Assembly: GCA_046485285.1 (NCBI GenBank) | Contig: JAWOHE010000012.1 | Location: forward strand, 1-31,520 | Source: a bacterium | GTDB lineage: Bacteria > Hydrothermota > Tepidihabitantia > Tepidihabitantales > Tepidihabitantaceae | Direction of reading: 5' to 3' | DNA length: 31,520 nucleotides | In this document: one piece after another, positions 1,110 through 31,463 of the stretch | Position numbering within the stretch: position 1 is the first letter of the stretch | Layout of the letters: each line of letters begins with the position of its first letter | Translations under genes and position numbers: made by a program | The notes under the pieces: model-generated | Database searches by the model: none | Seen by the model: the letters and a program-made list of their open reading frames with translations, nothing else | What the model was told of the DNA's origin: nothing

Positions 1110-1138
1110 TTGACGCCTGCCCGCTGAGTCCGTATCAT
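1110..1138 (+). promoter_or_regulatory. sigma70-type promoter TTGACG-17-TATCAT, GTG start 6 nt downstream (likely leaderless)
   Basis: TTGACG 1110-1115, TATCAT 1133-1138, GTG 1145, no Shine-Dalgarno. Confidence 0.7.
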
Positions 1139-1144
1139 CCCGCC

Positions 1145-2896
1145 GTGCCCCGGACGCCGAAGAAGAAGCCTGCCCGCCGCAGTCCGGCCGCGCCGCCGCG
1201 CCGGCTCGAACTACCCGGCCCGCGCTGGCTCGTGCCGCTGGCGCTCGCGGCCATCGTCCTCGTCGGCCTCGGCCTGCGCGCCGCCGACCTGCGCGCCGAC
1301 CCGCCGCCGGACCTGTCCTGGAGCTTCGCGCCCTGGACCGACGAGGGGCTGAACGCCTACTCGGCCCGGAGCCTCGTCCTCCACGGCGCCTGGAAGACCG
1401 ATGACTTCTTCCCGTTTGTCGTCTACCCGCTGTTCAACCTGCTCGTCGCGCTCGCCTTCCGGCTGTTCGGCGTCGGCTTCGTGTCGGTGAAGCTCGTGTC
1501 GCTCCTCGCCGGCCTCGGCTCGATCGTCGCCCTCTACTTCCTCGTCCGCTCCTCCGCCGGCCGGCTCGCCGGGCTCATCGCCGCCCTGCTCCTCGCGCTC
1601 TGCTACCCGCACGTGATGTACACCCGGCTCGGGCTCGTCGAGTCACTGCAGGTGCTGTTCCTGCTGCTCACCGGGCTGTGCTGGGCGAAGGGTCTCGAGC
1701 GGCCGTGGGCGCTGGCGCTGTCGGGCCTGTTCGCCGCCGGCACGGTCCTGCTCGTCAAGATCTCGGCGCTGTTCGTCGCCCCGGTGATGCTGGTCATGCT
1801 CATCGTCCTCGCCGTCGAGGCGCGGCGCGACCCGGCGCGGAAGGCCGGCCTCGGCCGCGACGTCGGGCTGTTCTTCGCCGGTGTCGGTGCGGCGGTCGCG
1901 GTCTGGCTCGCGGTCGTCGTCCTGCCCCACAGCCGCGACTACGTCACCTACGTCCTGCGTCACTCCTTCGAGTCGCCGGCCGGCCACCCGGCCGACCCCG
2001 CCGCCTACCTCCTCAACACCTTCACCGTCGGCGCGGCGTCGCGGCTCTTCCCGAAGCTCGGCGTCACCGCGCTCGCCGGCTTCCTGCTCCTGCCCGGCCT
2101 CGGCCTCTCGCGCCGGCCCGCGTTCCGCTACCTGCTGGCGTGGTTCGTCTTCGCGCTGCTGATGCTCGGCTGGATGAACTACCGCCCGCCCCGCTACGAG
2201 GTCATCCTGCTCCCGCCGTTCATCGCCGCGGTCGCGGCCGGGATCGCCCGGCTCATCGAGGACGGCACGCTCCTACCGGCGGCTCGCGCCGGCTGGCTGC
2301 GCGCGCTGGGCTGGACGGCGTGGCTCTGGCCGCTGGCGGTCCAGCTTCTCATCCACAGCGGCGGCTTCGGCGGCGCACTCGCCTCGTCCACGGCCGGCGG
2401 CGCGCTCGGTGCCGGGCTCGGGGTCGCGGTCGCGCTCGCCGCGGTCAGCCTCGGTCTCGCGCGGCTCGCCCGTTCGGGCCTGTCGCTCGCCCGGCCGGCA
2501 GGCCGGTTCGTGCTCGCCGGCATCCTGCTCGCGCTCATCGTCCGGCTCGACCTCGCCCAGTTCGCGCGCTGGCACTCGAACCGCACCCACGACATGGTCC
2601 GCTACTCGCAGGAACTCGACCGCGTCCTGCCCGACGGCGCGGTGCTCGCCGGCGGCTGGGCGCCCGCCCTGCTGGTGGAGTCGCGCAAGCGGGCGCTCTG
2701 CCTGACCGACTGGGCCAACAACGACGACCCGGTCGGCCGGTTCGGGATGACCCACCTCGTCTCCCACGAGGAAAACGACATCAACCTGCTCGAGAAGAAC
2801 CGCCCCGGCCTGCGCGCCCTCCTGCGGCCGGTCTGGCAGGGCCGAGTGCGCGGGACGCGGCTGACCGCCTTCGAGCTCGCCCGGCCCGGGGAGTAG
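1145..2896 (+). CDS. Glycosyltransferase family 39 / ArnT-PMT-like multi-pass membrane protein
   Basis: Many hydrophobic segments, DE motif after first TM (WTDEG), YP.F..L loop; start moved from 1070 to GTG 1145 because of the promoter. Confidence 0.8.
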   Translation: MPRTPKKKPARRSPAAPPRRLELPGPRWLVPLALAAIVLVGLGLRAADLRADPPPDLSWSFAPWTDEGLNAYSARSLVLHGAWKTDDFFPFVVYPLFNLLVALAFRLFGVGFVSVKLVSLLAGLGSIVALYFLVRSSAGRLAGLIAALLLALCYPHVMYTRLGLVESLQVLFLLLTGLCWAKGLERPWALALSGLFAAGTVLLVKISALFVAPVMLVMLIVLAVEARRDPARKAGLGRDVGLFFAGVGAAVAVWLAVVVLPHSRDYVTYVLRHSFESPAGHPADPAAYLLNTFTVGAASRLFPKLGVTALAGFLLLPGLGLSRRPAFRYLLAWFVFALLMLGWMNYRPPRYEVILLPPFIAAVAAGIARLIEDGTLLPAARAGWLRALGWTAWLWPLAVQLLIHSGGFGGALASSTAGGALGAGLGVAVALAAVSLGLARLARSGLSLARPAGRFVLAGILLALIVRLDLAQFARWHSNRTHDMVRYSQELDRVLPDGAVLAGGWAPALLVESRKRALCLTDWANNDDPVGRFGMTHLVSHEENDINLLEKNRPGLRALLRPVWQGRVRGTRLTAFELARPGE

Positions 2897-2899
2897 CCG

Positions 2900-4258
2900 A
2901 TGACGGCGCGCGGCTTCGAACGGAAGAACCTCATCCAGACCGGTGTCGCGCTCGCGCTCGGCGTGCTGGTCTACCTCGTCCCGATACCCGGCATCCCGGA
3001 CCCGGCCAAGCGCTGCCTCGCCATCCTCGCGGTCGCCTCGTACCTCTGGGTCACCGAGGCGGTCCCGCTCTTCGCGACGGCGTTCCTCGTTGTCCTCGCC
3101 GAAGCGCTCCTGCTCTCCGGCCCGCTCAAGCTCGGCTTCCAGGTCTTCCTCGCCCCGTTCTTCGACCCGGTGATCATGCTCTTCCTCGGCGGGTTCATCC
3201 TCTCCCAGGCTCTCGCCAAGTACGACCTCGACGGCCTGCTCGCCTCGGCCATCCTGCGCCGGACCGGCGCGAAGCCGAAGAACGTCCTGCTCGGAATGAT
3301 GGCGGTCGCCGCCTTCCTGTCGATGTGGATGTCGAACACCGCCGCGACCGCCCTGCTCGTCGGCCTCGCGCTGACGATCATCCGCCGGCTCGACGCCGAC
3401 GACCCGTTCCGGGTCGCGCTCATCCTCGGCATCCCGTTCGCGGCCAACATCGGCGGCGTCGCGACGCCGATCGGCACCCCGCCCAATGCCATCGCCATCG
3501 GCATTCTTGCCGAGCGCGGCATCCAGGTCAGCTTCGTCCGCTGGATGGCGATCGGCCTGCCGGTCACCGCCGCGATCTTCCTCGTCCTCTGGCGGCTGCT
3601 GCTTCGGCTCTTCCCGGCCCGGGCGCAGTCGGTCGCGCTGCCGCCGCCGGGCGATACCCGACTCGACGCCCGCCAGTGGACAATTGCCGCGGTCTTCGCC
3701 GCGACGATCCTGCTCTGGCTGACCGCCGAGTTCCACCGCCTGCCGTCGGCGGTCATCGCGGTCATCCCGGCTTTCGTCTTCACCGGCCTGCGCATCCTCG
3801 ACAAGGAGGACTTCGGCCGGGTCGGCTGGGACATCCTCATCCTGATGGGCGGCGGGCTGTCGCTCGGCGTCGCGATCCGCGAGTCGGGCCTGACCGACTG
3901 GGTGCTGACCCTGATCCGGCTCGGCGGCGTCAACCCGGTCCTGCTCACCGCCGCGCTCACCGTCGTCGCGATGGTCGTGACGACGTTCATCTCCAACACC
4001 TCGACCGCCGCGCTGCTGCTGCCGCTGGTCGCCGGCCTCGCGCCCGACCCGGTCGTGCCGGTGCTGGCGGTCGCCATCGGCGTCTCGGTCTCGATGGTCC
4101 TGCCGGTCTCGACCCCACCCAACGCCATCGCCTACGGCTCGGGGCTGGTATCGGTGCGGACGATGGCCCGGGTCGGGCTCATCCTGTCCGCCATCGCGCT
4201 GGTCATCGTCGTGCTCGGCGTCGTCGGCCTGGCGCGCCTGCTCGACTACGCTCATTAG
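2900..4258 (+). CDS. DASS/SLC13 family sodium:anion (dicarboxylate/sulfate/phosphate) symporter
   Basis: Two SNT motifs (MSNTAATA, ISNTSTAA), TPIGTPPN and STPPNAI hairpin motifs. Confidence 0.92.
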   Translation: MTARGFERKNLIQTGVALALGVLVYLVPIPGIPDPAKRCLAILAVASYLWVTEAVPLFATAFLVVLAEALLLSGPLKLGFQVFLAPFFDPVIMLFLGGFILSQALAKYDLDGLLASAILRRTGAKPKNVLLGMMAVAAFLSMWMSNTAATALLVGLALTIIRRLDADDPFRVALILGIPFAANIGGVATPIGTPPNAIAIGILAERGIQVSFVRWMAIGLPVTAAIFLVLWRLLLRLFPARAQSVALPPPGDTRLDARQWTIAAVFAATILLWLTAEFHRLPSAVIAVIPAFVFTGLRILDKEDFGRVGWDILILMGGGLSLGVAIRESGLTDWVLTLIRLGGVNPVLLTAALTVVAMVVTTFISNTSTAALLLPLVAGLAPDPVVPVLAVAIGVSVSMVLPVSTPPNAIAYGSGLVSVRTMARVGLILSAIALVIVVLGVVGLARLLDYAH

Positions 4259-4270
4259 AAGGGAGGCATC

Positions 4271-4633
4271 GTGGAAAGCGCCAAGTCCGACCATTGCATG
4301 AACTGCAACGCGACGAGCGTCACCAACCTCGTCCACGTCCGCACCGGCGAGCCGGTGCGCGTCTACGTCAAGTGCAACGCCTGCGGCTCGTACGTCGCCC
4401 GCTACACCCTCAGCCGCTACACGTCGGACCAGCCCTACGAGTCCCTGCTCCGGCTGCTCCGGCAGTACGCCTACGCCTCGGGCAAGCGCTGCCTCGAGGA
4501 GGTCGAGGAGTTCGGCACCGCCATCAGGGCCGAGTTCGAGCGCGTCGAGCGGCTCGTCGCCGCTTCCGAGGAGAAGCGCCGGGTCGAGGAGATGATCGAG
4601 GACGCACGCCGGCCCGACAAGCCGGAAGGCTGA
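4271..4633 (+). CDS. Small hypothetical protein with CxxC...CxxC zinc-ribbon and helical C-terminus
   Basis: GGGAGG SD at 4261-4266, GTG start; CMNC and CNAC motifs; codon usage matches neighbours. Confidence 0.75.
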   Translation: MESAKSDHCMNCNATSVTNLVHVRTGEPVRVYVKCNACGSYVARYTLSRYTSDQPYESLLRLLRQYAYASGKRCLEEVEEFGTAIRAEFERVERLVAASEEKRRVEEMIEDARRPDKPEG

Positions 4634-5251
4634 TCAGCCGCCGCGCCGCTCCCGCACGAACAGCAGCGGGAAGGCAATGTCCGAGAAGGTGCAGGGCAGC
4701 CAGACCGCGACGAGCAGGAACGCGAACAGCCCCAGGTACTTCACCGCCGGCAGCGTCCCGTCGAACGCCATCCCGAAGTGCGCGAGCGACGCGACCGTGC
4801 TCAGGAGGACGTGGGCGAAGTGCGGCGCCCGGGTCGTCGGCCGGAACCAGGATATCGCGATGCCGGCCAGCGCCGCCGGGTTGACGAGATACCAGAGCTC
4901 GATGAAGCCGACGTGTGCCTCTGCCCCGGGCAGGCCCAGCAGCCGCTCGCCGAGGTACGGGATGAGCGAGTCGGACAGCGTCCCGATGCCGACCGAGCCG
5001 AGGTAGCCGACAACCAGCAGCAGCCAGGGGTTGCACCGCGTCCGGCCGCCCTCGCACTTGTAGAGCCCGTACATCGCCGAGGTCGCCATCGCGCTCGCGA
5101 ACACGTGCAGCGGGTGGAAGGTTGCGAACAACCGGTGCGACACCGCGTCGGGCAGGCGTCCCAGCGGCACCAGCAGCGCGACGCCGAGCGCCGCCCCGCC
5201 CAGGGTCCAGGGCAGGTGGTGCCCGAGCTCGTGCAGGATGCGGCGCATCAT
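4634..5251 (-). CDS. His-rich multi-pass membrane protein, putative metal transporter
   Basis: About 6-7 hydrophobic segments; HELGHH, FHPLHV, PHFAHV motifs; ATG 5251 overlaps the Fur-family stop (ATGA). Confidence 0.75.
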   Translation of the reverse strand: MMRRILHELGHHLPWTLGGAALGVALLVPLGRLPDAVSHRLFATFHPLHVFASAMATSAMYGLYKCEGGRTRCNPWLLLVVGYLGSVGIGTLSDSLIPYLGERLLGLPGAEAHVGFIELWYLVNPAALAGIAISWFRPTTRAPHFAHVLLSTVASLAHFGMAFDGTLPAVKYLGLFAFLLVAVWLPCTFSDIAFPLLFVRERRGG

Positions 5252-5691
5252 CGCCGCGCCGACTTCGCCCGGCAGGCCGGGCACCGGCCCTCGACTTGCA
5301 TCGTGTGGCTGCTGACCCGGTACCCGGTCCGGCGCTCGACGCGCCGCCGCTCTGCAGCCGGGAAGGCGCAGCCGATGACGTCGACCCGGCCGCAGCCGGT
5401 GCAGACGATGTGGTGGTGGTGCCGGCCCGGCTCGGCGCCGCAGGCGGCGTAGCTTCGAACCCGGTCCGCCCGCTCGACCCGGGTCAGCAGCCCGGCCCGG
5501 ACCAGTTCCTCGAGTGCCCGGTAGACCGTCGGCAGGCCCAGCCGGCCCATCCGCGGCCTCAATCGGGCGTGGACCGCTTCAGGGGTCAGCGCCCGCCCGG
5601 TCCGCAGGAGCAGGCCGGCGATCGCCAGCCGCCGGGGCGTTGCCTTCCGGCCGTCGGCGCGCAGTGCCGACCGCACCGCCGCCTCATCCAT
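5248..5691 (-). CDS. Fur-family transcriptional repressor (Zur-like)
   Basis: TPRRLAI, GLPTVYRALEEL wHTH, HHHHIVCTGC and C-terminal CPAC. Confidence 0.92.
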   Translation of the reverse strand: MDEAAVRSALRADGRKATPRRLAIAGLLLRTGRALTPEAVHARLRPRMGRLGLPTVYRALEELVRAGLLTRVERADRVRSYAACGAEPGRHHHHIVCTGCGRVDVIGCAFPAAERRRVERRTGYRVSSHTMQVEGRCPACRAKSARR

Positions 5692-5712: not shown

Positions 5713-5740
5713 ACTGTACCGGCGCCGGCCCCGGCGTCAA
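5713..5740 (-). promoter_or_regulatory. Promoter TTGACG-16-TACAGT
   Basis: cgtcaa 5735-5740 and actgta 5713-5718 on + strand. Confidence 0.7.
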
Positions 5741-7129: not shown

Positions 7130-7157
7130 ATTCTAGCGCCCGGCGGCGGGGTGTCAA
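7130..7157 (-). promoter_or_regulatory. Promoter TTGACA-16-TAGAAT
   Basis: tgtcaa 7152-7157, attcta 7130-7135. Confidence 0.75.
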
Positions 7158-7200: not shown

Positions 7201-8676
7201 TTAGAGCGACTTGAGACAGGCGAACAGCGTCCGGAGCGGCACGCCGGTCCCGCCCGCCGGCGCGTAGTCCCAGCCTTCCTTGGTGAAGGCCGGCCCGGCG
7301 ATGTCCATGTGCACCCAGGGTATTCCCTTGTCGACGAACTCCCTGAGGAAGAGCCCGGCGATGATCGTCCCGGCGTTCATCGGCTTGCCGATGTTCTTGA
7401 TGTCGGCGACCTTGCTCGCGATGTGGGGCCGGTAGGGCTCGGCGAGCGGGAGCTGCCAGAAGAACTCGCCCTGCTCCGCGCCCAGCCTGATGATGCGGTC
7501 GACCAGCGCCTGGTCGGTCCCGAGCAGGGCGGTGTACTCGTCGCCGACCGCGACCACGGCCGCGCCGGTCAGCGTCGCGAGGTCGAACATCACATCCGGT
7601 TTGAGCGTCGAACCGTAGGCCAGCGCGTCGGCCAGGATCAACCGGCCCTCGGCGTCGGTGTTCAGCACCTCCGAGGTCTTGCCGCCGAAGTGACGAATGA
7701 CGTCGCCCGGCTTCTGGGCGCTGCCCGACGGCAGGTTCTCGACCAGCGGCACGAGCCCGTGAACCTCGAGCGGCAGGTCGGCGTCGCCGAGCAGCTTGAA
7801 CAGCCCGAACACGGACGCCGCGCCCGCCATGTCCTGTTTCATCCCGTCCATCGACGGCCCGGGCTTGAGGTTGAGCCCGCCCGAGTCGAACGTCACGCCC
7901 TTGCCGACCACCACGACCCGCTTCTTCGCCTTCCGCTTCGGCCGGTAGTCGAGGTGCACGAGGCAGGGCGGCTCCTGTGAGCCCGCGCCGACCCGCAGGA
8001 TGCCGTTCATCCCGCGCCGGACAAGCTCGTCCTTGCGCAGGACCTCGACCCCGATGCGGTCCGGCTTGGCCAGCCAGGTTGCCAGCTCGGCCATCATCTC
8101 GGGCGCCTTCTGGCTCGGCGGCTCGTTGACGAGGTCGCGTACGTAGCAGACCGCTTCGGCGACCGCGGCCGCCTCGCGGGCCGCGCGATCGAGCTCCGCC
8201 TGCGCCCCGGCCGGCGCGAGCAGCGTGAGCTGAGCCGGTGGCCGGCTCTCGTCGTCCCGGACCCGGCGGTGCTCGATGTAGCGGTAGCTGCCGAGGAGGA
8301 CGCCTTCGACCGCGGCCGCGGCAAACCGCGTCGCCGGGCCGGCGGCAAAGCCGACCCCGGGCAGCAACAGCCCGAGCTCCTCGACGCCCATCTCCTCCGC
8401 CGCCTTGGCGGCCTTCGCGGCCGCGGCGCGCACCCGGTCGGCCGAGTACTCGGCCCGCTTGCCGAGCCCGGTGAGGATCAGCCGCCGGCGCCCTTTCGCC
8501 GCCCTGAGCACGACGACACGCTTGAGCTGGCCCTTGAAGCCCTCTTCCGCGGCCACTGACCGGAAGGCCGCCGCCTCGGCCTGCCCGAGCCCGGCGATGC
8601 CGGGCCGGTCCTCGAACGCGAACGCGGCCCGGAACCGGCCGCTCCACTGACGCGCGGAACGCACTCTGACTTTCAC
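7201..8676 (-). CDS. pepA: Leucyl aminopeptidase (M17)
   Basis: VGKGVTFDSGG, MKQDMAGAA, NTDAEGRL, DLATLTGA, HMDIAG; AAAGGAG SD before GTG 8676. Confidence 0.95.
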   Translation of the reverse strand: MKVRVRSARQWSGRFRAAFAFEDRPGIAGLGQAEAAAFRSVAAEEGFKGQLKRVVVLRAAKGRRRLILTGLGKRAEYSADRVRAAAAKAAKAAEEMGVEELGLLLPGVGFAAGPATRFAAAAVEGVLLGSYRYIEHRRVRDDESRPPAQLTLLAPAGAQAELDRAAREAAAVAEAVCYVRDLVNEPPSQKAPEMMAELATWLAKPDRIGVEVLRKDELVRRGMNGILRVGAGSQEPPCLVHLDYRPKRKAKKRVVVVGKGVTFDSGGLNLKPGPSMDGMKQDMAGAASVFGLFKLLGDADLPLEVHGLVPLVENLPSGSAQKPGDVIRHFGGKTSEVLNTDAEGRLILADALAYGSTLKPDVMFDLATLTGAAVVAVGDEYTALLGTDQALVDRIIRLGAEQGEFFWQLPLAEPYRPHIASKVADIKNIGKPMNAGTIIAGLFLREFVDKGIPWVHMDIAGPAFTKEGWDYAPAGGTGVPLRTLFACLKSL

Positions 8677-8721
8677 GATGACTCCTTTCACATCCGGATG
8701 CCTGTCGCGGTCCGTCCCTAG

Positions 8722-8749
8722 AATCTGCCCGCCCGACGCGCGGTGTCAA
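8722..8749 (-). promoter_or_regulatory. Promoter TTGACA-16-CAGATT (weaker -10)
   Basis: tgtcaa 8744-8749, aatctg 8722-8727. Confidence 0.5.
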
Positions 8750-9254: not shown

Positions 9255-9282
9255 GTTCTATGCGAAAGCCCGGTCCTGTCAA
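9255..9282 (-). promoter_or_regulatory. Promoter TTGACA-16-TAGAAC
   Basis: tgtcaa 9277-9282, gttcta 9255-9260; back-to-back with the plus-strand promoter. Confidence 0.55.
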
Positions 9283-9295: not shown

Positions 9296-9323
9296 TTGAC
9301 ACGCCGCCGAAGCCGCCTATTCT
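9296..9323 (+). promoter_or_regulatory. Promoter TTGACA-16-TATTCT, GTG start 6 nt downstream
   Basis: TTGACA 9296-9301, TATTCT 9318-9323, GTG 9330. Confidence 0.72.
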
Positions 9324-9329
9324 CGCCCC

Positions 9330-9890
9330 GTGCCTGCCGGCCTGAAGGTCTTCAGCCCGCCGATCCTCTTCAACGAGGAGGCGGTGCGGGAGCTCTGCCG
9401 GCTCGCCCGCCAGGGCTACGAGACCCGTCACAAGCGCGAGACCTTCGGCTTCCTCTTCGGCGTGGTCTCCGCCGACCACCGGCTCATCGTCCGCCACGCC
9501 CGCTACTACCGGGGCGGCACGAAGACCCGGTACTGCGTCACCCTCACCGAGCGAGAGATGTTCCGCCGCCGCCAGGACCTCGCCCGCGAGCTTCACCTGC
9601 GCTTCCTCGGCAGCTTCCACTCCCACGTCGAGGTCGGCGGGTTCGTCTCACGCGGAATGTCGGCCGACGACCGCGCCTCGTTCCGTCGCGACGGTGATGC
9701 GTCGATCGAGGCGCTGGTCTCAATCTGGGCCGGCCGACCCAAGTCTGTCCGTCCGACCGCGAAGACCGTCGTGGCGTGGGAGCCTGAGACCGGCTACCAC
9801 TACCGGGTCCGGGTCTACGCCCGCCAGAACGGCGACGTGCGCCGGGTCCGGGTGCGGATCATTCGATCCGGCGTCGTCATTGTCTACTAG
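9330..9890 (+). CDS. JAMM/MPN+ (Mov34/JAB) domain metalloprotease-like protein
   Basis: ETFGFLFG ... LGSFHSH ... MSADD = E-xn-HSH-xn-S-xx-D motif. Confidence 0.75.
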   Translation: MPAGLKVFSPPILFNEEAVRELCRLARQGYETRHKRETFGFLFGVVSADHRLIVRHARYYRGGTKTRYCVTLTEREMFRRRQDLARELHLRFLGSFHSHVEVGGFVSRGMSADDRASFRRDGDASIEALVSIWAGRPKSVRPTAKTVVAWEPETGYHYRVRVYARQNGDVRRVRVRIIRSGVVIVY

Positions 9891-9928: not shown

Positions 9929-10624
9929 ATGCTGACTGCCATCCTGCTCGCCGCGGTCGTGGCCGCGCCGACTGAGACGCCACGCACCATCCAGGTTTCC
10001 GGCACCGCCGAGGTGACGGTCGCGCCCGACATCTGCTACATTTCCTTCGGCGTCACTGCCGAGCACAAGTCGAGCGCCGCCCTGGCCTACCGGGACAACA
10101 CCGCGGTGATGGCCGCGGTCGTTGCCGCCATCCGCGCGCTCGACATCCCGGACAATGACATCAAGACCGCGAACCTCACCATCAGCCCGAGCTACCGCTG
10201 GGACGACAAGGACCGCCGTCCCCAGTTTGAGGGCTACGAGGTCAACAACACGCTGGCGGTCAGCCTGCGCGACATCACCCGGGTGTCGAACGTCCTCGAC
10301 GCCGCGGTCGCGGCCGGTGCGACCACTGTCAGCAACGTCAGATTCACGGTCGAGAACCCCAAGCAGTACCTCACCGAGGCACGGGTCGAGGCGGTCAGGG
10401 CTGCGAAGGCCAAGGCCGGGGCGATGGCCGAGGCGGCCGGCGCCCGGCTCGGCGCGGTGCGGACCATCCTCGAGCACGAGGTCGGCGGCTACGGCCGGCT
10501 CTACGCCCAGTCAAACGTCGCGGCCGAGCGCGGCCTCGTCGAGTCCGTCGGCGCCGGCGACGCGGTCTCACCCGGCGACGTCAGACTCAGCCAGTCGGTG
10601 ACAGCGACCTTTGAACTGCACTAA
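9929..10624 (+). CDS. SIMPL domain (DUF541) periplasmic protein
   Basis: Signal peptide; RTIQVSGTAEVTVAPD, AVRAAKAKAGAMAEAAGARLG, VTATFEL. Confidence 0.9.
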   Translation: MLTAILLAAVVAAPTETPRTIQVSGTAEVTVAPDICYISFGVTAEHKSSAALAYRDNTAVMAAVVAAIRALDIPDNDIKTANLTISPSYRWDDKDRRPQFEGYEVNNTLAVSLRDITRVSNVLDAAVAAGATTVSNVRFTVENPKQYLTEARVEAVRAAKAKAGAMAEAAGARLGAVRTILEHEVGGYGRLYAQSNVAAERGLVESVGAGDAVSPGDVRLSQSVTATFELH

Positions 10625-10655: not shown

Positions 10656-10683
10656 TTGACCACTGCCCGGCCGGGTCTATAAT
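10656..10683 (+). promoter_or_regulatory. Promoter TTGACC-16-TATAAT
   Basis: TTGACC 10656-10661, TATAAT 10678-10683. Confidence 0.8.
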
Positions 10684-10698
10684 CGTTGCTCTTTGCTG

Positions 10699-10995
10699 AT
10701 GAAGTACTGGCGCACACCCCTTGATGCCGACCGCTGCAAGTCGCCGCACGGCATCGTTCACATCATCGTCGACCGCTGCAAGGGCTGCGGTTTCTGCGTC
10801 GACTACTGCCCGAAGCAGGTCCTCGAGTTTTCGCGCCACTTCAACCGCAAAGGCTACCACCCGCCGGTGGTGGTGAAGCCAGAGGCCTGCGTCGAGTGCG
10901 GGCTGTGCGGCGCGATATGCCCTGAGTTCGCCATCTGGTCAACCCCGGACCCGGAGTGCGTGCTTGATGAGCCAGCCGAGAGCCCGAAAAACTGA
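10699..10995 (+). CDS. korD: 2-oxoacid:ferredoxin oxidoreductase delta subunit (2x[4Fe-4S] ferredoxin)
   Basis: CKGCGFCVDYCP and CVECGLCGAICP; first gene of kor operon. Confidence 0.88.
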   Translation: MKYWRTPLDADRCKSPHGIVHIIVDRCKGCGFCVDYCPKQVLEFSRHFNRKGYHPPVVVKPEACVECGLCGAICPEFAIWSTPDPECVLDEPAESPKN

Positions 10996-12139
10996 CTCCC
11001 CGGTCCTGACCGGGTCGCACTACATCGACGGCGACGAAGCCTGCGCCGAAGGTGCGATTGCCGCCGGGTGCCGATTCTTCGCCGGGTACCCGATCACGCC
11101 CTCGACCGAGATCGCCGAGCGCATCGCCGCCCGCTTCCCGCTCGTCGGCGGGACGTTCATCCAGATGGAAGACGAGCTCGCCTCGATGGCCGCCATCCTC
11201 GGCGGCGCGTGGGGCGGCGCCAAGACAATGACGGTCACCTCCGGCCCGGGTTTCTCGCTGATGCAGGAGAACATCGGCCTCGGCGTGATGACCGAGACCC
11301 CCTGTGTCGTCGTCAACGTCCAGCGCGGCGGCCCGTCGACCGGCCTGCCGACGCTTACCGGCCAGCAGGATATGATGCAGGCCCGCTGGGGCTCGCATGG
11401 CGACTACGAGATCATCGCCCTTTCGCCCTCGTCGCCCCAGGAGTGCTTCGACCTTACCGTCACGGCCTTCAACCTCTCCGAGCGCTACCGCTTGCCGGTG
11501 CTGTTCATGATGGACGAGTGCGTCGGCCACATGACCGAGAAGGTCGTCATCCCGCCCGAGGGTGAGATCAAGGTCGCGGAACGCCGCTGGTACCGGGGAC
11601 CCAGGGACCGCTACCTGCCCTACCAGCCTGACCTGGACAAGGTCCCGCCGATCGTCCGCGCGGGCGAGGACTACCGTATCCACATCACCGGCCTGACCCA
11701 CGATGAACGCGGCTACCCGGTCATCACCGCCGCCTGCCAGCACGTCTGCGTCAGCCGGCTGGTCGACAAGATCCGCGATAATACCGACGACATCGTCATC
11801 ACCGAGAAGGACGGGCTCGACGGGGCCGACGTGGTCGTCGTCAGCTACGGCATCAGCTCGCGCGTGGCGACTCGGGCCATTGACCTCGCCCGCCGGCAGG
11901 GAATCCGGGTCGGCGCGCTTCGCCTCGTGACCGTCTGGCCGTTCCCGGAAAAGGTCATCGCCGACCTCTCGGCCCGGGTCAAGGCGCTGGTGATGCCCGA
12001 GATCAACCTCGGCCAGATGTTCCGGGAGTTGCAGCGGGCGGCCGCCGGGCGGTGCCGGACCCTGCTGGTCCCGCACTGCGGCGGCTGGGTCCACGACCCG
12101 GCTGACATCCTCAAGGCCATCCAGGAGGGCGCGCGATGA
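10967..12139 (+). CDS. korA: 2-oxoacid (2-oxoglutarate-type):ferredoxin oxidoreductase alpha subunit
   Basis: FAGYPITPSTE, QMEDELAS, TSGPGFSLMQE, QRGGPSTGLPT. Confidence 0.93.
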   Translation: MSQPRARKTDSPVLTGSHYIDGDEACAEGAIAAGCRFFAGYPITPSTEIAERIAARFPLVGGTFIQMEDELASMAAILGGAWGGAKTMTVTSGPGFSLMQENIGLGVMTETPCVVVNVQRGGPSTGLPTLTGQQDMMQARWGSHGDYEIIALSPSSPQECFDLTVTAFNLSERYRLPVLFMMDECVGHMTEKVVIPPEGEIKVAERRWYRGPRDRYLPYQPDLDKVPPIVRAGEDYRIHITGLTHDERGYPVITAACQHVCVSRLVDKIRDNTDDIVITEKDGLDGADVVVVSYGISSRVATRAIDLARRQGIRVGALRLVTVWPFPEKVIADLSARVKALVMPEINLGQMFRELQRAAAGRCRTLLVPHCGGWVHDPADILKAIQEGAR

Positions 12140-13032
12140 GCACCGCGACCCCGACCACCCCTCCCGAGCGGCACCCCCACGAAGACTTCCTGCGGATGGA
12201 TCGCATCCCGCACATCTGGTGTTCAACCTGCGGCCTCGGCACCGTTCTGAACGCCTACATTTCCGCCATCAAGCGCAGCGAGCTTCCCCGCGAGCGTCAC
12301 GCCATCGTCTCCGGAATCGGGTGCACCGGCCGCGCCGCCGGCTACGTCAAGCTCGACAGCTTCCACACCACCCACGGCCGGGCCCTGCCCTTCGCGACCG
12401 GACTGCACCTCGCCAACCCGGAGCTCAAGGTCACCGTCTTCTCCGGCGACGGCGACCTCGTCGCGATCGGCGGCAATCACCTCATCCACGCCGCCCGGCG
12501 CAACCTCGACATGACTGTCGTCTGCGTCAACAACTTCAATTACGCGATGACCGGTGGCCAGTTCGGCCCCACCACGCCCGAAGGCGCCAAGCTGACCACC
12601 GCACCCTACGGCAGCTACGAGCACCCCTTCAACGTCCCGTTTCTCGTCGATTCCTGCGGGGCGACCTACGTCGCACGCTGGACCGCGCTCCACGTCCGCG
12701 AGCTCATCGACTCAATCGTCGAGGCGCTCGCTCACAAGGGCTTCAGCTTCGTCGAGGTCATCGCACCCTGCCCGACCGTCTACGCCCGGCGCAACCGGCT
12801 CGGCAGCGGCCTCGACCTGCTCCACTACTACCACGACAACTCCGAAGTCCGCAACGGGGCCGACACCCGCGATGTCGACATCTCGTTCCAGGGCAGGCTC
12901 ATTGTCGGCAAGTTCGTCCAGCGTTGCCGGCCGACGTACCTCGAGACGATGGACGCCGCGCTCGGCCGCTCGGTCGGCAAGGCCTTCGTCTGCTACGAGG
13001 GCCCGATGCACATGCACCATGGCGGAAATTAA
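12136..13032 (+). CDS. korB: 2-oxoacid:ferredoxin oxidoreductase beta subunit (TPP-binding)
   Basis: WCSTCG, SGIGC, HTTHGRA, GDGD...NN TPP motif. Confidence 0.93.
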   Translation: MSTATPTTPPERHPHEDFLRMDRIPHIWCSTCGLGTVLNAYISAIKRSELPRERHAIVSGIGCTGRAAGYVKLDSFHTTHGRALPFATGLHLANPELKVTVFSGDGDLVAIGGNHLIHAARRNLDMTVVCVNNFNYAMTGGQFGPTTPEGAKLTTAPYGSYEHPFNVPFLVDSCGATYVARWTALHVRELIDSIVEALAHKGFSFVEVIAPCPTVYARRNRLGSGLDLLHYYHDNSEVRNGADTRDVDISFQGRLIVGKFVQRCRPTYLETMDAALGRSVGKAFVCYEGPMHMHHGGN

Positions 13033-15632: not shown

Positions 15633-15660
15633 AATCTAGCCCCGGCGCCCCGCCTGTCAA
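15633..15660 (-). promoter_or_regulatory. Promoter TTGACA-16-TAGATT, ATG 8 nt downstream
   Basis: tgtcaa 15655-15660, aatcta 15633-15638; no SD. Confidence 0.72.
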
Positions 15661-17694: not shown

Positions 17695-18576
17695 TCAGGC
17701 GGCCCGGCGGCGCTCGGCCAGCTCCAGGAACGCCTCGACGCGGGTGACGAGCCCGGCCGTGCCGGTATGCTCGTCAACCACCAGCTGTAGGAAGGGCACC
17801 GCCCGCCTCTGCGCCTCTTCCCGCATCAACTCCGCGACGAGCGAATCCGGTCCGCAGCCCATCGAAACCACGGCGCAGACGCCATCGACCCTGCCGACGA
17901 AGAACCGGAACGCGTTGTAGAGTTCACGCTCGAAGATCCAGCGGATGTTCTGCGCGAAACCCTCCCGGCTGCGCAGGACTGCCAGTGGCAACTCGTCCTT
18001 CAGCCGCACCCGGTAACCATAACGCTCGAATGCCTTGACGATCGGCAGGCCGACGTAGTCGTCACCGATGTTGTAGAAATGCCCGATAAGTGCCACGTTG
18101 CGCTCGCCCGGGCCAAACTCAGGCTCAACCGGGCTGTGGTCCAGTAGTGGCCGGGCCGACACCAGCGCCCGGACAACCCTCGCCGGGTCCCCGGTGAGCT
18201 CGAGCCCGGCCCGGAAGTGCGGCCAGAACATCCCGCGTCTGATGGCCGGGGCGATGAGTCGCGTCTCCCCGCCCATCATCATCCGGGCGATGTCGACGAT
18301 GCCAATCATCTTAGGGCAGGCATAGAGATGGTCCTCGAGCGACACCATCCGGGGCAGGAATATCGCGTCGACCCGGTCCTTCAGGTCCAGGATGTGGCCG
18401 GCAACGATCTTGACCGGCAGGCAGACCTCGCTCGACACGCATTTCAGGCCGGCCGACAGGAGGACCTTGTCCGTCGGCCGACTGAGTACGACCTCGACGC
18501 CGAGCCCGGACAGGAAGGACTGCCAGTAAGTTCCGTATCGGTAGTAGAGCAACCCGCGCGGTAATCCTACCCGCAT
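17695..18576 (-). CDS. Acyl-CoA dehydratase activase-related protein (DUF2229-like)
   Basis: VGLPRGLLYY, EVCLPVK, CPK, GCGPDS, DEHTGTAGLVTRVEAF. Confidence 0.85.
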   Translation of the reverse strand: MRVGLPRGLLYYRYGTYWQSFLSGLGVEVVLSRPTDKVLLSAGLKCVSSEVCLPVKIVAGHILDLKDRVDAIFLPRMVSLEDHLYACPKMIGIVDIARMMMGGETRLIAPAIRRGMFWPHFRAGLELTGDPARVVRALVSARPLLDHSPVEPEFGPGERNVALIGHFYNIGDDYVGLPIVKAFERYGYRVRLKDELPLAVLRSREGFAQNIRWIFERELYNAFRFFVGRVDGVCAVVSMGCGPDSLVAELMREEAQRRAVPFLQLVVDEHTGTAGLVTRVEAFLELAERRRAA

Positions 18577-18582: not shown

Positions 18583-18610
18583 ATTCTACGACCCGCCGCA
18601 GAACAGTCAA
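18583..18610 (-). promoter_or_regulatory. Promoter TTGACT-16-TAGAAT, ATG 6 nt downstream (leaderless)
   Basis: agtcaa 18605-18610, attcta 18583-18588, ATG 18576. Confidence 0.78.
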
Positions 18611-26855: not shown

Positions 26856-26883
26856 ATTATAGAAACCAGCCCGTCCAAGTCAA
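26856..26883 (-). promoter_or_regulatory. Internal promoter TTGACT-16-TATAAT upstream of rpsD
   Basis: agtcaa 26878-26883, attata 26856-26861, within the 47-bp rpsK-rpsD gap. Confidence 0.78.
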
Positions 26884-27701: not shown

Positions 27702-27729
27702 GTTATAGTGGATTTGCCGGTGATGTCAA
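27702..27729 (-). promoter_or_regulatory. Alpha-operon promoter TTGACA-16-TATAAC
   Basis: tgtcaa 27724-27729, gttata 27702-27707. Confidence 0.7.
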
Positions 27730-27763
27730 GCCGGACCCCGGCCCGCCCCGGTCGCGAAAACGG

Positions 27764-27791
27764 TTGCCCTCGTCCCGGCCCGGCCTAGAAT
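27764..27791 (+). promoter_or_regulatory. Promoter TTGCCC-16-TAGAAT, ATG 7 nt downstream (leaderless)
   Basis: TTGCCC 27764-27769, TAGAAT 27786-27791, ATG 27799, no SD. Confidence 0.65.
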
Positions 27792-27798
27792 CCTCCCG

Positions 27799-29658
27799 AT
27801 GAAGGCGCATCACGACGTCATCGTCGTCGGGGCCGGCCACGCCGGCTGCGAGGCCGCCGCCGCCGCGGCCCGGCTCGGCTGCTCGACCCTGCTGCTGACC
27901 GCAAGCCTCGACGCGATCGCGCTCCTCTCCTGCAACCCCGCGGTCGGCGGCATCGGCAAGAGCCAGCTCGTCCGGGAACTCGATGCCCTCGGCGGGCTGA
28001 TGGCGCGGGCCGCCGACGCCGCCGGCATCCACTTCCGACGGCTCAACACCAGCAAGGGCAAGGCGGTCCAGGCCACCCGGGTCCAGGTCGACCGCGACGG
28101 CTACCGCGAGGCGGTCCGCCGCCTGCTCACCGCCATCCCCGGCCTCGACTTCGCCCAGGGAATGGCCCGCGCGGTCATCGTCCGCCGCGGCCGGGCCGCC
28201 GGCGTCGTCACCGAACTCGGCGAGGAATTCCGCGCCCGGGCGGTCGTCCTCGCGCCGGGCACCTTCCTCGACGGACTCGTCCACGTCGGGCTCGAACACT
28301 GGCCGGCCGGCCGCATCGGCGAGGCGCCCGCCGCCGGCCTGCGCGCGAACCTCGCCGCGCTCGGCTTCGAGCTCGGCCGGTTCAAGACCGGCACCCCGCC
28401 CCGGCTCGACCGGCGCACGCTCGACTGCGGCCGGATGACCGAACAGCCCGGCGACGAACCGCCCAACCCGCTCTCGCTCTGGACCCGGGACCCGGTCCGC
28501 AACCGGGCCTCCTGCTGGCTGACCTACACCAACCACCGCACCCACCGGGTCGTCCGCAACGGCCTCCCCCGCTCGCCGCTCTACTCCGGGGTCATCCGCG
28601 CCACCGGCGTCCGCTACTGCCCCTCAATCGAAGACAAGGTCGTCAAGTTCGGCCACCACCCCCGGCACCAGGTCTTCATCGAGCCCGAGGGCGCGGACTC
28701 GGTCGAGGCCTACCCCAACGGCGTCTCGACCAGCCTGCCGGTCGACCTCCAGCTCCGGATGCTCCGGACGATTCCCGGCCTCGAGCGCTGCCGCATCACC
28801 CGCCCCGGCTACGCCATCGAGCACGACTACGCCCCGCCGACCCAGGTCCACCCCACGCTCGAGACCCGCCGCCTGCCCGGCCTCTTCTTCGCCGGCCAGC
28901 TCAACGGCACCACCGGCTACGAAGAGGCCGCCGCCCAGGGCCTCGTCGCCGGGCTCAACGCCGCCCGCCTCGCCCGGCGCGAGGAACCGGTCGCGCTCCC
29001 CCGGGCCGAATCCTGCATCGGCGTGATGCTCGACGACCTCACGACCCGCGGCACCGACGAACCCTACCGGATGCTCTCGGCCCGGGTCGAATTCCGGCTC
29101 TCACTGCGCGAGGACAACGCCGACTTCCGGCTCGGCCCGCTCGCCGAACGGCTCGGGCTCCTCGACCCGGACCAGGCCGCGCTCCTCGCCCGGCGCCGCC
29201 GCCAGCTCAACGCGGCGATGAAATGGCTCAGGACCGCCCGGGTCCGCCCCGGCCGGGCCGCCAGCCGCCGGCTCAGGGCGCTCGGCACCCCGCCGCCCGC
29301 CGAACCGGTCCCGGCCATCGAACTCCTGCGCCGGCCGGAAGTCGGCTGGGCCGACCTCGTCGCGCTCGCCGGTCCCGGGCCGGACGTCGAGCCCGGCATC
29401 GGCGACCTCGTCGAAATCGAGACCAGGTACGAAGGCTACATCGCCCGCGAGCACCGGCGCCAGTACGACTCGCTCGAACTCGAGGCCCTGCGCCTGCCCG
29501 CGAAACTCGACTACGGCCGCATCAACGGGCTCTCGGCCGAAGTGCGCGAAAAACTCACCCGCCTCCGCCCCGCGACCATCGCCCGCGCGCGCAGCATCCC
29601 GGGCATGACCCCGGTCGCGGTCTTCGCGCTCATCGCCTTCCTGAAAGCGAAACGCTGA
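27799..29658 (+). CDS. mnmG: tRNA uridine-5-carboxymethylaminomethyl(34) synthesis enzyme MnmG (GidA)
   Basis: VVGAGHAGCEAA, SCNPAVGG, FKTGTPPRL, RYCPSIEDK, GQLNGTTGYEEAAAQG. Confidence 0.98.
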   Translation: MKAHHDVIVVGAGHAGCEAAAAAARLGCSTLLLTASLDAIALLSCNPAVGGIGKSQLVRELDALGGLMARAADAAGIHFRRLNTSKGKAVQATRVQVDRDGYREAVRRLLTAIPGLDFAQGMARAVIVRRGRAAGVVTELGEEFRARAVVLAPGTFLDGLVHVGLEHWPAGRIGEAPAAGLRANLAALGFELGRFKTGTPPRLDRRTLDCGRMTEQPGDEPPNPLSLWTRDPVRNRASCWLTYTNHRTHRVVRNGLPRSPLYSGVIRATGVRYCPSIEDKVVKFGHHPRHQVFIEPEGADSVEAYPNGVSTSLPVDLQLRMLRTIPGLERCRITRPGYAIEHDYAPPTQVHPTLETRRLPGLFFAGQLNGTTGYEEAAAQGLVAGLNAARLARREEPVALPRAESCIGVMLDDLTTRGTDEPYRMLSARVEFRLSLREDNADFRLGPLAERLGLLDPDQAALLARRRRQLNAAMKWLRTARVRPGRAASRRLRALGTPPPAEPVPAIELLRRPEVGWADLVALAGPGPDVEPGIGDLVEIETRYEGYIAREHRRQYDSLELEALRLPAKLDYGRINGLSAEVREKLTRLRPATIARARSIPGMTPVAVFALIAFLKAKR

Positions 29659-29706
29659 CGTGGCGACAACGGACCCCGGCTCGGCCCCGCCGGCCGGCTA
29701 CCCACG

Positions 29707-30381
29707 ATGACTCCTGACGCCGCCCGCGCGCTCGTCGACGGCGTCTGCCGCGAACACCGCGCCGCGGCCTGGGGCGCGACGCCCATCGACCGCCTGCCTG
29801 CCGACGACTTCCTGCTCCCGGCCGGCACCATCGCCCGCCACCCGTACGCGATCAGCGCCGCCCTGCCGCTCCTGCCCGCGGTCCTCGCCACCCTCACCGA
29901 CCGCCCCAACCACCTCTACGAACACCACTACCGCCAGGCCAACTTCGCGCTCGACCGGCTCGGGCTCGCCCTCGCCCGCGCGGTCCAGGACGCGGGCCTC
30001 TCCGCCCTGCCGATTCCCGCCTCGCAAATCGTCGACTGGCAACGCCAGCGCGGCCACCTCTCCCACAAACGGGTCGCGGTCGCGGCCGGGCTCGGCTGGC
30101 TCGGCCGCAACAACCTCCTCGTCACCCCCCGCCACGGCGCCCAGGTCCGGCTCGTCACCGTCCTCACCGACCTGCCCCTGCCCCCACCCGGGCCGCCGGC
30201 CGGCGACTGCGGCGACTGCCGCGCCTGCCTCGCCGCCTGCCCCTGCGGCGCCATCCGCGACACCGCCGCCGAATTCGACCACCGCGCCTGCTACGAACAA
30301 CTCCGGGAATTCCAGCGCCGGCGCGACGCCAGCCAGTACATCTGCGGCCTCTGCGTCAAAGCCTGCCCGGGCCGGTCCTGA
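29707..30381 (+). CDS. Epoxyqueuosine reductase (QueG)/reductive-dehalogenase-like 4Fe-4S protein, short form
   Basis: SHKRVAVAAGLGWLGRNNLLVTP..G..VRLVTVLTD, CGDCRACLAACP, CGLCVKACP. Confidence 0.85.
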   Translation: MTPDAARALVDGVCREHRAAAWGATPIDRLPADDFLLPAGTIARHPYAISAALPLLPAVLATLTDRPNHLYEHHYRQANFALDRLGLALARAVQDAGLSALPIPASQIVDWQRQRGHLSHKRVAVAAGLGWLGRNNLLVTPRHGAQVRLVTVLTDLPLPPPGPPAGDCGDCRACLAACPCGAIRDTAAEFDHRACYEQLREFQRRRDASQYICGLCVKACPGRS

Positions 30382-30411
30382 CCCGCGAACCGGACCGGAC
30401 ACAAAGGACCC

Positions 30412-31446
30412 ATGGGCCCTGCCATCCTGACCCACGGCCCCCCGCCCGTCATTTCGACCGCAGTGGAGAAATCCCTTTCCGGCTTTCTCCCCCTCTCCGC
30501 CTTCGGGCCGTCGACTCCGAAGCCATCCCGGCGGACCGCAATCAGCACCCTTGGGTCCAAGCCTTCGCCGGCAAAGTCGGTCAGGAGCCACCAGCAGGCC
30601 CCGTTTTGGGCATCAAAACGTAAGTCACTCACCGGCCGAGCTTTGACGGCAGGGGGGGATATCCCCGGGGATATCCCCGGGACGGTCCCGGGGGCCGCCC
30701 CGGGGATGGTCCCGGGGACCGCCCCGGGGACCGTTCCGGGGGCCGTCCCGGGAGCCGCTCCGGGGGCCGTCCCGGGGGCCGCCCCGGGGACCGCTCCGGG
30801 GGCCGTCCCGGGAGCCGCTCCGGGGACCGCTCCGGGGGCCGCTCCGGGGGCCGTCCCGGGGACCGCTCCCGGGACCGCTCCCGGGACCGCTCCGGGGGTG
30901 CGGTGGGGGATAGGGGTGTCGTCCGGCTTCTCCGGTAGGTTCGAGGCAGGCAGGAGCGCTCCGGGGGGTATACCCGGGGATATCCCCGGGACGGTTCCCG
31001 GGGCCGTCCCGGGGACCGTCCGGGAGGCCGCTCCCGGGGCCGCTAGGGGAACCGCTCCTGGGGATATCGGGGGGACGGTTCCCGGGGCCGTCCCGGGAGC
31101 CGCTACCGGGGCCGTCCCGGAGGCCGCCCCGGGGGCCGCTAGGGGAGGCGTCCCCGGGGCCGCTAGGGGAAGGCAGGTGGGGGTGGGGGTCCGGACGGGG
31201 TCAGGACGCGGGTCACACTCCATTGTCTTGACATCGGTGACGCTCTTCTGCCGGCGGCCGGCACCCGTGCTCCTGCCTGTCAGGCCCGACCGCCGTCCTT
31301 CCGCAATCAGCGTCTTCGGCCTCGCCCGCCGCGTCCTCGACCGCGCCATCGCCGAAGGCAAGGCCCCGGACTCGCTCCGCCAAGACCTCGACCGCTGGCT
31401 CGCCGGACCCGGCCGGCCCGGCCATCCGGCCCAGGTTGACAGGTAG
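30412..31446 (+). CDS. Doubtful low-complexity ORF spanning the arrays; only the last ~45 codons look like real protein
   Basis: Open frame of 344 codons mirrored by an equally open minus-strand frame; tail SVFGLARRVLDRAIAEGKAPDSLRQDLDRWLAG has the C-ending codon bias of neighbouring real genes. Confidence 0.25.
   Translation: MGPAILTHGPPPVISTAVEKSLSGFLPLSAFGPSTPKPSRRTAISTLGSKPSPAKSVRSHQQAPFWASKRKSLTGRALTAGGDIPGDIPGTVPGAAPGMVPGTAPGTVPGAVPGAAPGAVPGAAPGTAPGAVPGAAPGTAPGAAPGAVPGTAPGTAPGTAPGVRWGIGVSSGFSGRFEAGRSAPGGIPGDIPGTVPGAVPGTVREAAPGAARGTAPGDIGGTVPGAVPGAATGAVPEAAPGAARGGVPGAARGRQVGVGVRTGSGRGSHSIVLTSVTLFCRRPAPVLLPVRPDRRPSAISVFGLARRVLDRAIAEGKAPDSLRQDLDRWLAGPGRPGHPAQVDR
30448..30473 (+). repeat. 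Possible single REP/RPE-like short palindromic element (GTCATTTCGACCGCAGTGGAGAAATC)
   Basis: ATTTC...GAAAT internal inverted repeat after a GTC(A) 5' end; resembles from memory short interspersed palindromes of Bacteroidota; only one copy in the window. Confidence 0.4.
30655..30894. repeat. Tandem array A: 20 degenerate 12-bp units (consensus ~GGG RCC GYY CCG)
   Basis: Counted from the in-frame translation GDIP GDIP GTVP GAAP ... GTAP; begins with the perfect palindrome GGGGATATCCCC. Confidence 0.92.
30964..31167. repeat. Tandem array B: 17 more-diverged 12-bp units of the same family
   Basis: GGIP GDIP GTVP GAVP GTVR EAAP GAAR ...; same opening order as array A; separated from A by 69 bp. 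Confidence 0.88.
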
Positions 31447-31463
31447 AAACCAGCCGGCACAAT
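31436..31463 (+). promoter_or_regulatory. Promoter TTGACA-16-CACAAT, GTG 6 nt downstream
   Basis: TTGACA 31436-31441, CACAAT 31458-31463, GTG 31470. Confidence 0.6.

Follow-up and report, generated by a model that had tools for sequence, protein, structure and literature searches.

A spacer of 17 bp between the -35 and -10 hexamers is treated as a near-universal optimum of bacterial promoters and has been built into promoter-prediction models. Whether this optimum can differ between lineages is the question raised by contig JAWOHE010000012.1 of assembly GCA_046485285.1 (positions 1 to 31,520, forward strand), the 31,520-nt stretch of DNA analyzed here as a whole and referred to as the window. 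A preliminary description had proposed that the promoters of the window have a 16-bp spacer almost without exception and that the primary-sigma holoenzyme of the lineage has a shifted geometry. The window is one contig of a genome bin of 2.34 Mb (2,339,643 bp in 102 contigs, 69% G+C, completeness 88%), and its RpoA is 75-90% identical to proteins from metagenome-assembled genomes (MAGs) titled 'candidate division WOR-3'.

In Escherichia coli, 17 bp is the commonest spacer (PMC8695583, PMC9303308), the rRNA promoters of Rhodobacter also have 17 bp (PMC7703639), and a survey published in 2025, covering 49 species for which transcription start sites (TSSs) had been mapped, describes mainly 17-bp spacers, using an energy model that was trained on E. 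coli and penalizes 16 bp (PMC12641261), as stated in the available parts of these sources. The present analysis, which is based on sequence statistics throughout, shows that the hexamer pairs of the window are true promoters, used by the one primary sigma factor (sigma-70/sigma-A type) of the organism, that the preferred -35/-10 distance in this lineage is 16 bp and not 17, and that this preference is inherited: the whole class of the window has it, as do several WOR-3 families outside the class, whereas a sharp 17 is retained in others. This descriptive part (real promoters, a mode of 16, a clade trait) is held with very high confidence; the cause of the setting is discussed at lower and varying strength.

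Spacer length in the window and its source genome

All 13 promoter sites listed in the preliminary description were found at their coordinates and on their strands, and 1110(+), named there as the sole site with 17 bp, is indeed the only one among them, the remaining 12 having 16 bp. The -35 hexamer is TTGACN at 12 sites and TTGCCC at one, and the -10 hexamer conforms to TAnnnT at nine, the others beginning (8749, 31436) or ending (9282, 27729) with C. An independent consensus scanner allowing spacers of 16-18 bp was run on positions 1-16000 and 15500-31520 and reported 14 distinct sites (eight in the former and seven in the latter, the site at 15660 being common to both), where 0.5 and 0.6 sites would be expected from shuffled halves of the window. 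Eleven of these 14 sites have 16 bp, three have 17 bp, and none has 18 bp. The scanner retrieves 10 of the 13 listed sites; the three missed have -10 hexamers that fail its rule, two through a final C (9282, 27729) and one through agreement with the consensus at 3 of 6 positions (8749).

Across the genome bin, the pattern TTGAC.-N-TA...T was counted on both strands for spacers of 10-24 bp. It occurs 415 times at 16 bp, 165 times at 17 bp, and 59 times at 18 bp, and each of the other spacings (10-15 and 19-24 bp) yields 7-33 sites, the 12 at 15 bp being at background level. A reversed-pattern control gave 12, 10, and 8 sites at 16, 17, and 18 bp, and the control-subtracted split is 66/25/8%, with a mean spacer of 16.4 bp. 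The genome-wide histogram, on which the claim of a shifted mode had been made to depend, therefore peaks at 16 bp rather than 17, and the claim survives; the wording 'almost without exception' holds in the window (12 of 13 sites) but is too strong for the genome. The spacers stay inside the canonical 16-18 bp range, yet 17 bp is not the commonest, and with almost nothing at 15 bp the mode forms the lower edge of the distribution.

The same preference is found when sites are counted in other ways. Among the 4920 TTGAC words of the genome, 688 are followed by TAnnnT at a spacer of 13-21 bp, and the sites matching at a single spacing only number 395 at 16 bp, 162 at 17 bp, and 45 at 18 bp. With a stricter -10 (TTG...-N-TATAAT), the counts are 31, 3, and 4; the better -10 hexamers pair with 16 bp, an indication that this is the favored spacing and not a compensated one. 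Anchoring in the inverse direction, from 338 TAnnnT words located 5-8 nt ahead of a good open reading frame (ORF) start, finds a TTG at a spacer of 16 bp in 163 cases, of 17 bp in 53, and of 18 bp in 11, with no other offset exceeding 8 cases.

The logo of the 16-bp sites across the genome reads (G)(C)TTGAC(a)-N15-C-TA(t/g)(a/c)(a/c)T, with A as the sixth base of the -35 in 40% of sites. A C directly 5' of the -10, at position -13, is present in 62% of the 16-bp and 59% of the 17-bp promoters (as at 10682 and 26857 in the window), and no TG of an extended -10 appears in the genome-wide logo. The flanks of the 17-bp class match those of the 16-bp class, with G/C ahead of TTGAC and C ahead of TA, so that the 17-bp class represents the same kind of promoter with one extra base in the spacer.

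The relation of the sites to genes was assessed with a simple rule, without a gene finder, in which genes are ORFs with a high G+C content at third codon positions (GC3). The start of such an ORF lies within 300 nt on the same strand at 341 of the 395 16-bp sites (86%), 131 of the 162 17-bp sites (81%), and 35 of the 45 18-bp sites (78%), compared with 41% of 2000 random positions and 37% of 4251 TTGAC words lacking a -10. A start codon 5-10 nt past the -10 is found at 152 of the 395 16-bp sites (~38%), 46 of the 162 17-bp sites, and 5 of the 45 18-bp sites. In the 16-bp class, the distances of 5, 6, 7, 8, 9, and 10 nt occur 28, 41, 24, 23, 23, and 13 times, with a peak at 6 nt, and the start codons within 12 nt of the -10 are ATG, GTG, and TTG in a ratio of 100:55:14. 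This arrangement points to many leaderless mRNAs in the genome, which would place the TSS ~7 nt past the -10 and confirm the register of the -10 independently. With the canonical sigma-70/sigma-A promoter (TTGACA-17±1-TATAAT), these sites have in common the words of the -35 and the -10, the sigma stretches (regions 2.4 and 4.2) that contact the DNA, the predicted TSS at ~7 nt, and the 16-18 bp range; they differ from it in the mode of 16, the C at -13, the missing TG, and a much higher adherence to the -35 consensus.

An artefact, whether a register error in the hexamers, a repeated element, the promoters of a second sigma factor, or chance, might be suspected given that the counts are based on exact-word patterns. 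Misreading TTGAC/TAnnnT by ±1 bp is, however, impossible, as a shifted -10 would need TA at -13/-12, and the leaderless start codons fix the register in their own way. The 16-bp and 17-bp classes share their flanks, the spacer sequences are diverse and do not constitute a repeat, the genome has a single RpoD-like gene at E≤1e-40, and 415 sites against 12 are beyond chance. Including the outgroup counts given below, such an explanation is assigned a very small probability.

The strongest gene classes use 16 bp, namely tRNA genes (39 detected, with 19 distinct upstream 16-bp promoters and 6 with 17 bp), 16S rRNA (a 16-bp site lies 86 nt upstream), rpsD, and rpsM. According to the available part of one study, E. 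coli also has 16-nt spacers in the two promoters of each of its seven rRNA operons and in most promoters of tRNA genes, and the discriminators of E. coli 16-nt promoters are richer in G+C (PMC9303308). The parallel with rrn P1/P2 suggests a regulatory explanation, in which the optimum is still 17 bp and a sub-optimal 16 bp is used deliberately: a short spacer joined to near-consensus hexamers would give short-lived open complexes amenable to global regulation. The hexamers here are indeed unusually near consensus, with ~600 exact TTGAC + TAnnnT sites in 2.3 Mb. In contrast to the stable-RNA promoters of E. coli, however, 16 bp is the norm for all gene classes genome-wide and spans metabolic, regulatory, and tRNA-modification genes; in the window alone it precedes the genes for Fur, the aminopeptidase, the oxidoreductase, sucC, and mnmG. 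The G+C content of the discriminator, taken as the six positions past the -10, is 0.60-0.74, about the genome value of 0.69, and the predicted start is not displaced from the ordinary 7 nt, while that of E. coli rrnB P1 lies 9 nt past the -10. The best -10 hexamers go with 16 and not 17, and sister lineages with equally consensus-like hexamers have a sharp 17, which makes deliberate use of a sub-optimal spacer rather improbable. As a separate observation on the tRNA genes, the genome contains a tRNA-SeC gene with its own 16-bp promoter (contig C49, 6554-6648).

Distribution of the 16-bp mode in WOR-3

The count was extended to 81 WOR-3 genomes taken from across the phylum, kin among which are not independent, with three fixed-spacer patterns (16, 17, and 18 bp); a mode was called when the excess over control was greater than 3 × √(summed counts). 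In A+T-rich genomes the reversed pattern makes only a rough control, a weakness that could favor an artefact, but the contrast between spacers inside one genome does not depend on it. Mode 16 was called in 47 genomes, mode 17 in 27, and mode 18 in one, with no call in six. All 8 genomes of the family of the window, all 12 of its order, and all 15 of its class have mode 16, and the calls are consistent inside families. Sharp use of a single length is seen in 30 genomes, as in G017 and G066 for 16 bp (excess at 16/17/18 bp of 447/-10/28 and 554/-17/91) and in G034 and G002 for 17 bp (17/348/-33 and -6/271/-51). The 17-mode families of WOR-3 are f8, f10, f11, f17, f18, and f24-f26, and four families (f16, f19, f21, and f23) are near 50/50.

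Under this count, every one of the five outgroup genomes whose signal is readable has mode 17: Armatimonadia (excess at 16/17/18 bp of -18/103/26), Spirochaetota (50/143/34), Saccharibacteria (17/37/6), Paceibacterota (14/51/-4), and Parcubacteria (19/27 at 16/17 bp). A pattern that returns 17 in these genomes is difficult to reconcile with an artefact of counting. No clear excess was seen at 16 and 17 bp in the Nitrospiraceae and Leptospiraceae MAGs or in the unclassified MAG G089, and SZUA-485, where the pattern has 73 sites at 16 bp and 53 at 17 bp and the control 47 at either spacing, is too weak for a mode call. E. coli K-12 gave 90/42/24 sites at 16/17/18 bp against 124/146/212 in the reversed control; this absence of a positive signal under the strict pattern speaks for an artefact, and with no excess E. 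coli cannot calibrate the count, so that outgroup MAGs were used instead. The pattern TTGAC-N-TANNNT is thus rarer in E. coli K-12 than its reversed control, a shortage that may mean that strong spurious promoters are avoided, or may be a peculiarity of the control itself.

In an RpoB tree of 45 rows, five of them outgroups, with SH-aLRT support values and basal forks that lack resolution, the 16- and 17-mode states are interleaved. The class of the window forms a well-supported 16-mode clade (99*) whose sister clade is mostly 17-mode, and further 16-mode groups are f9+f14, f12, f15, and f7. A 374-kb sample from seven 17-mode WOR-3 genomes (~40% G+C) contains 43 sites at 17 bp and 9-25 at other spacings. 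The 17-mode families share with the lineage of the window the phylum, the TTGACA and TATAAT words, and the DNA-contacting stretches of sigma; their spacer, however, is sharply 17, and in this sample none of the 43 sites has C at -13 and a T-rich tract precedes the -35. Among the downstream stretches listed for these sites, a Shine-Dalgarno-type leader is often present, as judged by eye and uncounted.

Orthologous promoters allow the comparison to be made at single loci. Both hexamers and the 16-bp spacer of the rpsD promoter are kept in 5 of 6 related WOR-3 loci, the sixth having no match to the pattern, while the sequence of the spacer diverges and the G+C content of the loci ranges from 0.50 to 0.65. 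Upstream of rpsM, the nearer relatives agree with the window, the spacer being 16 bp in locus L003 and readable as 16 bp with a non-T final base in L004 and L006, whereas L005 (~1484) and L008 (~1474), both at 50% G+C, have 18 bp followed by a perfect TATAAT, which in L008 is preceded by TGTG. Spacer length can thus change at a single orthologous promoter. G+C content was considered as the cause of the 16-bp mode and rejected, as mode 16 occurs at 69% G+C here and rpsD keeps 16 bp at loci of 50-51% G+C; the listed sites of the mode-16 family f12 are also visibly A+T-rich.

Candidate causes of the 16-bp setting

The single RpoD-like gene of the genome at E≤1e-40 encodes 618 aa on contig C86 (L001 1477-3333, -). 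Its regions 2-4 align without gaps to those of 46 relatives, and it belongs with the group-1 sigma factors. In the resulting alignment of 47 RpoD sequences, for which 3 of 20 added loci, all of family f14, were dropped by a motif filter, lineages of the 16- and the 17-mode have essentially identical DNA-contacting stretches in regions 2.4 and 4.2, which indicates that the same bases are read and that the distance alone differs. The protein is also extended at its N terminus by a long stretch rich in Arg, Lys, and Ala and has a long insert ahead of region 2, and RpoD open frames across the phylum span 505-669 aa.

An altered geometry of the holoenzyme is a plausible explanation of these observations, and a cause intrinsic to the RNA polymerase (RNAP) is the favored one, rated at a little below an even chance. 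Under this proposal, the distance or angle at rest between domains 2 and 4 of sigma, with domain 4 seated on the beta flap, would be shorter by about 1 bp step (3.4 Å, 34 degrees). The shift would arise through amino-acid substitutions in sigma or the core enzyme, or through an accessory factor, and not through insertions or deletions; promoters with 16 bp would then be best at closed and open complex formation, and selection would hold the spacer at 16. The sharp use of a single length in 30 genomes is more reminiscent of a discrete ruler than of a physical parameter that varies by degrees. A more far-reaching formulation, in which the -35/-10 distance is a discrete and evolvable setting of the holoenzyme that was flipped between 16 and 17 several times in one phylum by substitutions alone, with the DNA-reading residues unchanged, is offered tentatively, as a reading somewhat more likely to be wrong than right.

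Several results weigh against a holoenzyme-based cause. The preliminary description had pointed to insertions and deletions (indels) in RpoD and the beta flap as its possible traces, and none that tracks the mode was detected: sigma regions 2-4 of the 47 RpoD sequences are of equal length but for one-residue indels in f2, f6, f11, and f13, which do not follow the mode; 45 RpoB sequences contain none that follows it in the beta flap or the flap tip helix; and neither do 21 beta' sequences (7 of 28 loci having been dropped by a motif filter) in their N-terminal ~390 residues, the region of the zipper, zinc-binding, and clamp-helix elements. A column-wise scan of the RpoB and RpoD alignments gave no clean convergent substitution. 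The score of RpoD against its C-terminal model, TIGR02393, is 343.5 bits, just below the curated cut-off of 354 bits. Parsimony requires at least six changes of mode over 32 scored tips (13 tips unscored), and several families are ~50/50, a pattern that a tunable, non-structural cause would give as well. Of the proposed shift in primary-sigma holoenzyme geometry, the mode of 16 stands (class 15/15, outgroups at 17), while the attribution to the holoenzyme lacks an indel correlate.

Other parts of these alignments were also inspected. No indel that follows the mode is seen in a variable loop of beta around E. coli residues ~735-745. The class of the window has substitutions of its own in sigma region 3.0 and in a conserved beta' segment, which the other 16-mode families do not have. 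Two candidate markers of the mode were rejected, namely the best RpoD column (R versus E in region 4.1), which has exceptions, and a K/R column ahead of TLEEVG, with exceptions in f10, f18, and f26.

As the main alternative, the same RNAP could produce a different preference if the DNA differs, since an altered average twist of the intracellular DNA, originating from less negative supercoiling, other nucleoid proteins, or other ions or temperature, would rotate the -35 relative to the -10 and let 16 bp provide the alignment reached with 17 bp in E. coli. As far as the available part of the publication shows, an E. coli thermodynamic model and experiments favor short spacers on relaxed DNA and long spacers when negative supercoiling is high, the optimum being 17 nt at a sigma (superhelical density) of -0.06, although 16-nt spacers deviated from the model in that same work (PMC9303308). 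By our own arithmetic, 0.06 × 34 degrees × 17 bp amounts to ~35 degrees, or ~1 bp step, and full relaxation could move the optimum by one. The many changes of state and the intermediate families would fit a tunable parameter of this type, but the sharp single-length distributions are unlike a graded one. GyrA was found in 77 of the 81 genomes, in both modes, and reverse gyrase above cut-off in 15 of the 81 (6 of 47 mode-16 and 9 of 27 mode-17 genomes, none in the family of the window), a distribution that is, if anything, opposite to the prediction. Topoisomerase gene content as an explanation was therefore rejected, as neither GyrA nor reverse gyrase separates the modes; gene presence, however, says little about superhelicity, and this content speaks only weakly against DNA twist, which is regarded as unlikely overall; the probability left over falls to causes other than those discussed here.

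A lineage-specific departure from 17 by one bp is known from mycobacteria, which prefer 18 bp in reporter assays on spacer series, a preference ascribed to their own RNAP in the available part of that report (Agarwal and Tyagi 2006, PMC1616969). The shift in WOR-3 is of the opposite sign (-1 here, +1 there), is derived from genome statistics, whereas the mycobacterial one comes from reporter assays, and, unlike it, switches repeatedly inside one phylum.

Promoters of the window and meaning for the lineage

The window contains the housekeeping genes rpsM, rpsD, rpoA, rplQ, mnmG, sucC, and pepA, and it also encodes a 2-oxoacid:ferredoxin oxidoreductase operon and a Fur-family regulator, among others. 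The 17-bp promoter at 1110..1138 (+), TTGACG-17-TATCAT (10 of 12 scanner matches), heads a unit of three genes, encoding a membrane protein, a DASS anion symporter (by family assignment), and a small ORF; a GTG lies 6 nt past the -10, in frame with the ORF 1070..2896. On the opposite strand, TTGACG-16-TACAGT at 5713..5740 (-), also found by the scanner, precedes the Fur-family regulator gene 5248..5691, whose ATG at 5691 is 21 nt past the -10. The promoter TTGACA-16-TAGAAT at 7130..7157 (-), with 11 of 12 scanner matches, is followed by a GGGAGG-type ribosome-binding site and an ATG 26 nt past the -10, upstream of an unnamed ORF (5772..~7103) for which an NCBIfam search gave no match. At 8722..8749 (-), TTGACA-16-CAGATT, with its weak -10, precedes the leucyl aminopeptidase gene 7201..8691, the transcript of which would have a leader with a GGAG-type ribosome-binding site.

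Two promoters are placed back-to-back beyond this gene. One of them, TTGACA-16-TAGAAC at 9255..9282 (-), lies upstream of a TadA-like tRNA adenosine deaminase gene (8771..~9247), with a GTG 7 nt past its -10; the other, TTGACA-16-TATTCT at 9296..9323 (+), a scanner site as well, heads the ORFs 9330..9890 and 9929..10624, and the GTG at 9330 is exactly 6 nt past the -10. The oxidoreductase operon, with its delta, alpha, and beta subunits (10693..13032), is headed by TTGACC-16-TATAAT at 10656..10683 (+), with 11 of 12 scanner matches. The succinate-CoA ligase beta subunit gene is preceded by TTGACA-16-TAGATT at 15633..15660 (-), common to sequence reading and scanner; an ATG at ~15624, 8 nt past the -10, fits the NCBIfam match, which begins at residue 72 of the longest ORF. 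A three-gene unit comprising 17695..18576 and downstream genes, one of them acyl-CoA dehydratase activase-like, is headed by TTGACT-16-TAGAAT at 18583..18610 (-), again retrieved by the scanner, and the ATG at 18576 is exactly 6 nt past the -10.

The ribosomal and RNAP genes rpsD-rpoA-rplQ are preceded by TTGACT-16-TATAAT at 26856..26883 (-), with 11 of 12 scanner matches, and rpsM by TTGACA-16-TATAAC at 27702..27729 (-), with a leader of ~56 nt. Divergent from the latter, TTGCCC-16-TAGAAT at 27764..27791 (+), likewise found by the scanner, serves mnmG (27799..29658), whose ATG is 7 nt past the -10. At the end of the window, the promoter-like TTGACA-16-CACAAT at 31436..31463 (+), which the scanner also reports, has a GTG 6 nt past its -10; the downstream ORF leaves the window, and its gene identity is unchecked. 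With a -10 located 6-7 nt ahead of the start codon, the mRNAs from 1110(+), 9296(+), 18610(-), and 27764(+) are probably leaderless, and 31436(+) is a further candidate.

Four weaker scanner sites complete the set, at 3296-3323 (-), 9858-9886 (-), 18278-18305 (-), and 22939-22967 (-), two with 16 bp and two with 17 bp. The last, 22967(-), falls inside the ORF of rsfS, with a PTS IIA-like gene downstream of it, and the related loci L003, L004, L006, and L007 have it at the corresponding position as TTGACT-17-CATATT. Hairpins resembling intrinsic terminators show no excess over shuffles (1 against 6.7 expected in 15500-31520 and 4 against 4.8 in 1-16000), and transcripts in this organism may end by other means. 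The ORF at 2-907 (-), at the left end of the window, encodes a cysteine-rich acidic repeat of the myxobacterial type. Among public sequencing runs queried with positions 22000-31500, no RNA run matched, and two DNA runs each matched 0.05 of the sampled words.

The lineage trait is real, and a lineage-specific shift in spacer length has its precedent in mycobacteria; in the full-text literature, subscription journals being outside the scope of the search, no report of a lineage with a mode of 16 bp and none on WOR-3 promoters was found. That WOR-3 contains clades at 16 bp whose sister clades have a sharp 17 means that the optimum can move, and models penalizing 16 bp would misplace the -35 in these lineages. 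In practical terms, the clean two-block signal together with the leaderless starts permits the annotation of start codons and transcription units in uncultured genomes without RNA data. The 16- and 17-mode sister clades also constitute a comparative system for asking whether RNAP geometry or DNA twist sets the distance. To our knowledge, the question of the sigma-2 to sigma-4 geometry has hitherto been approached only through engineered E. coli promoters. If the distance is an evolvable setting of the holoenzyme, related WOR-3 clades would be natural 'ruler mutants', and their comparison could locate the residues or the accessory factor behind this geometry.

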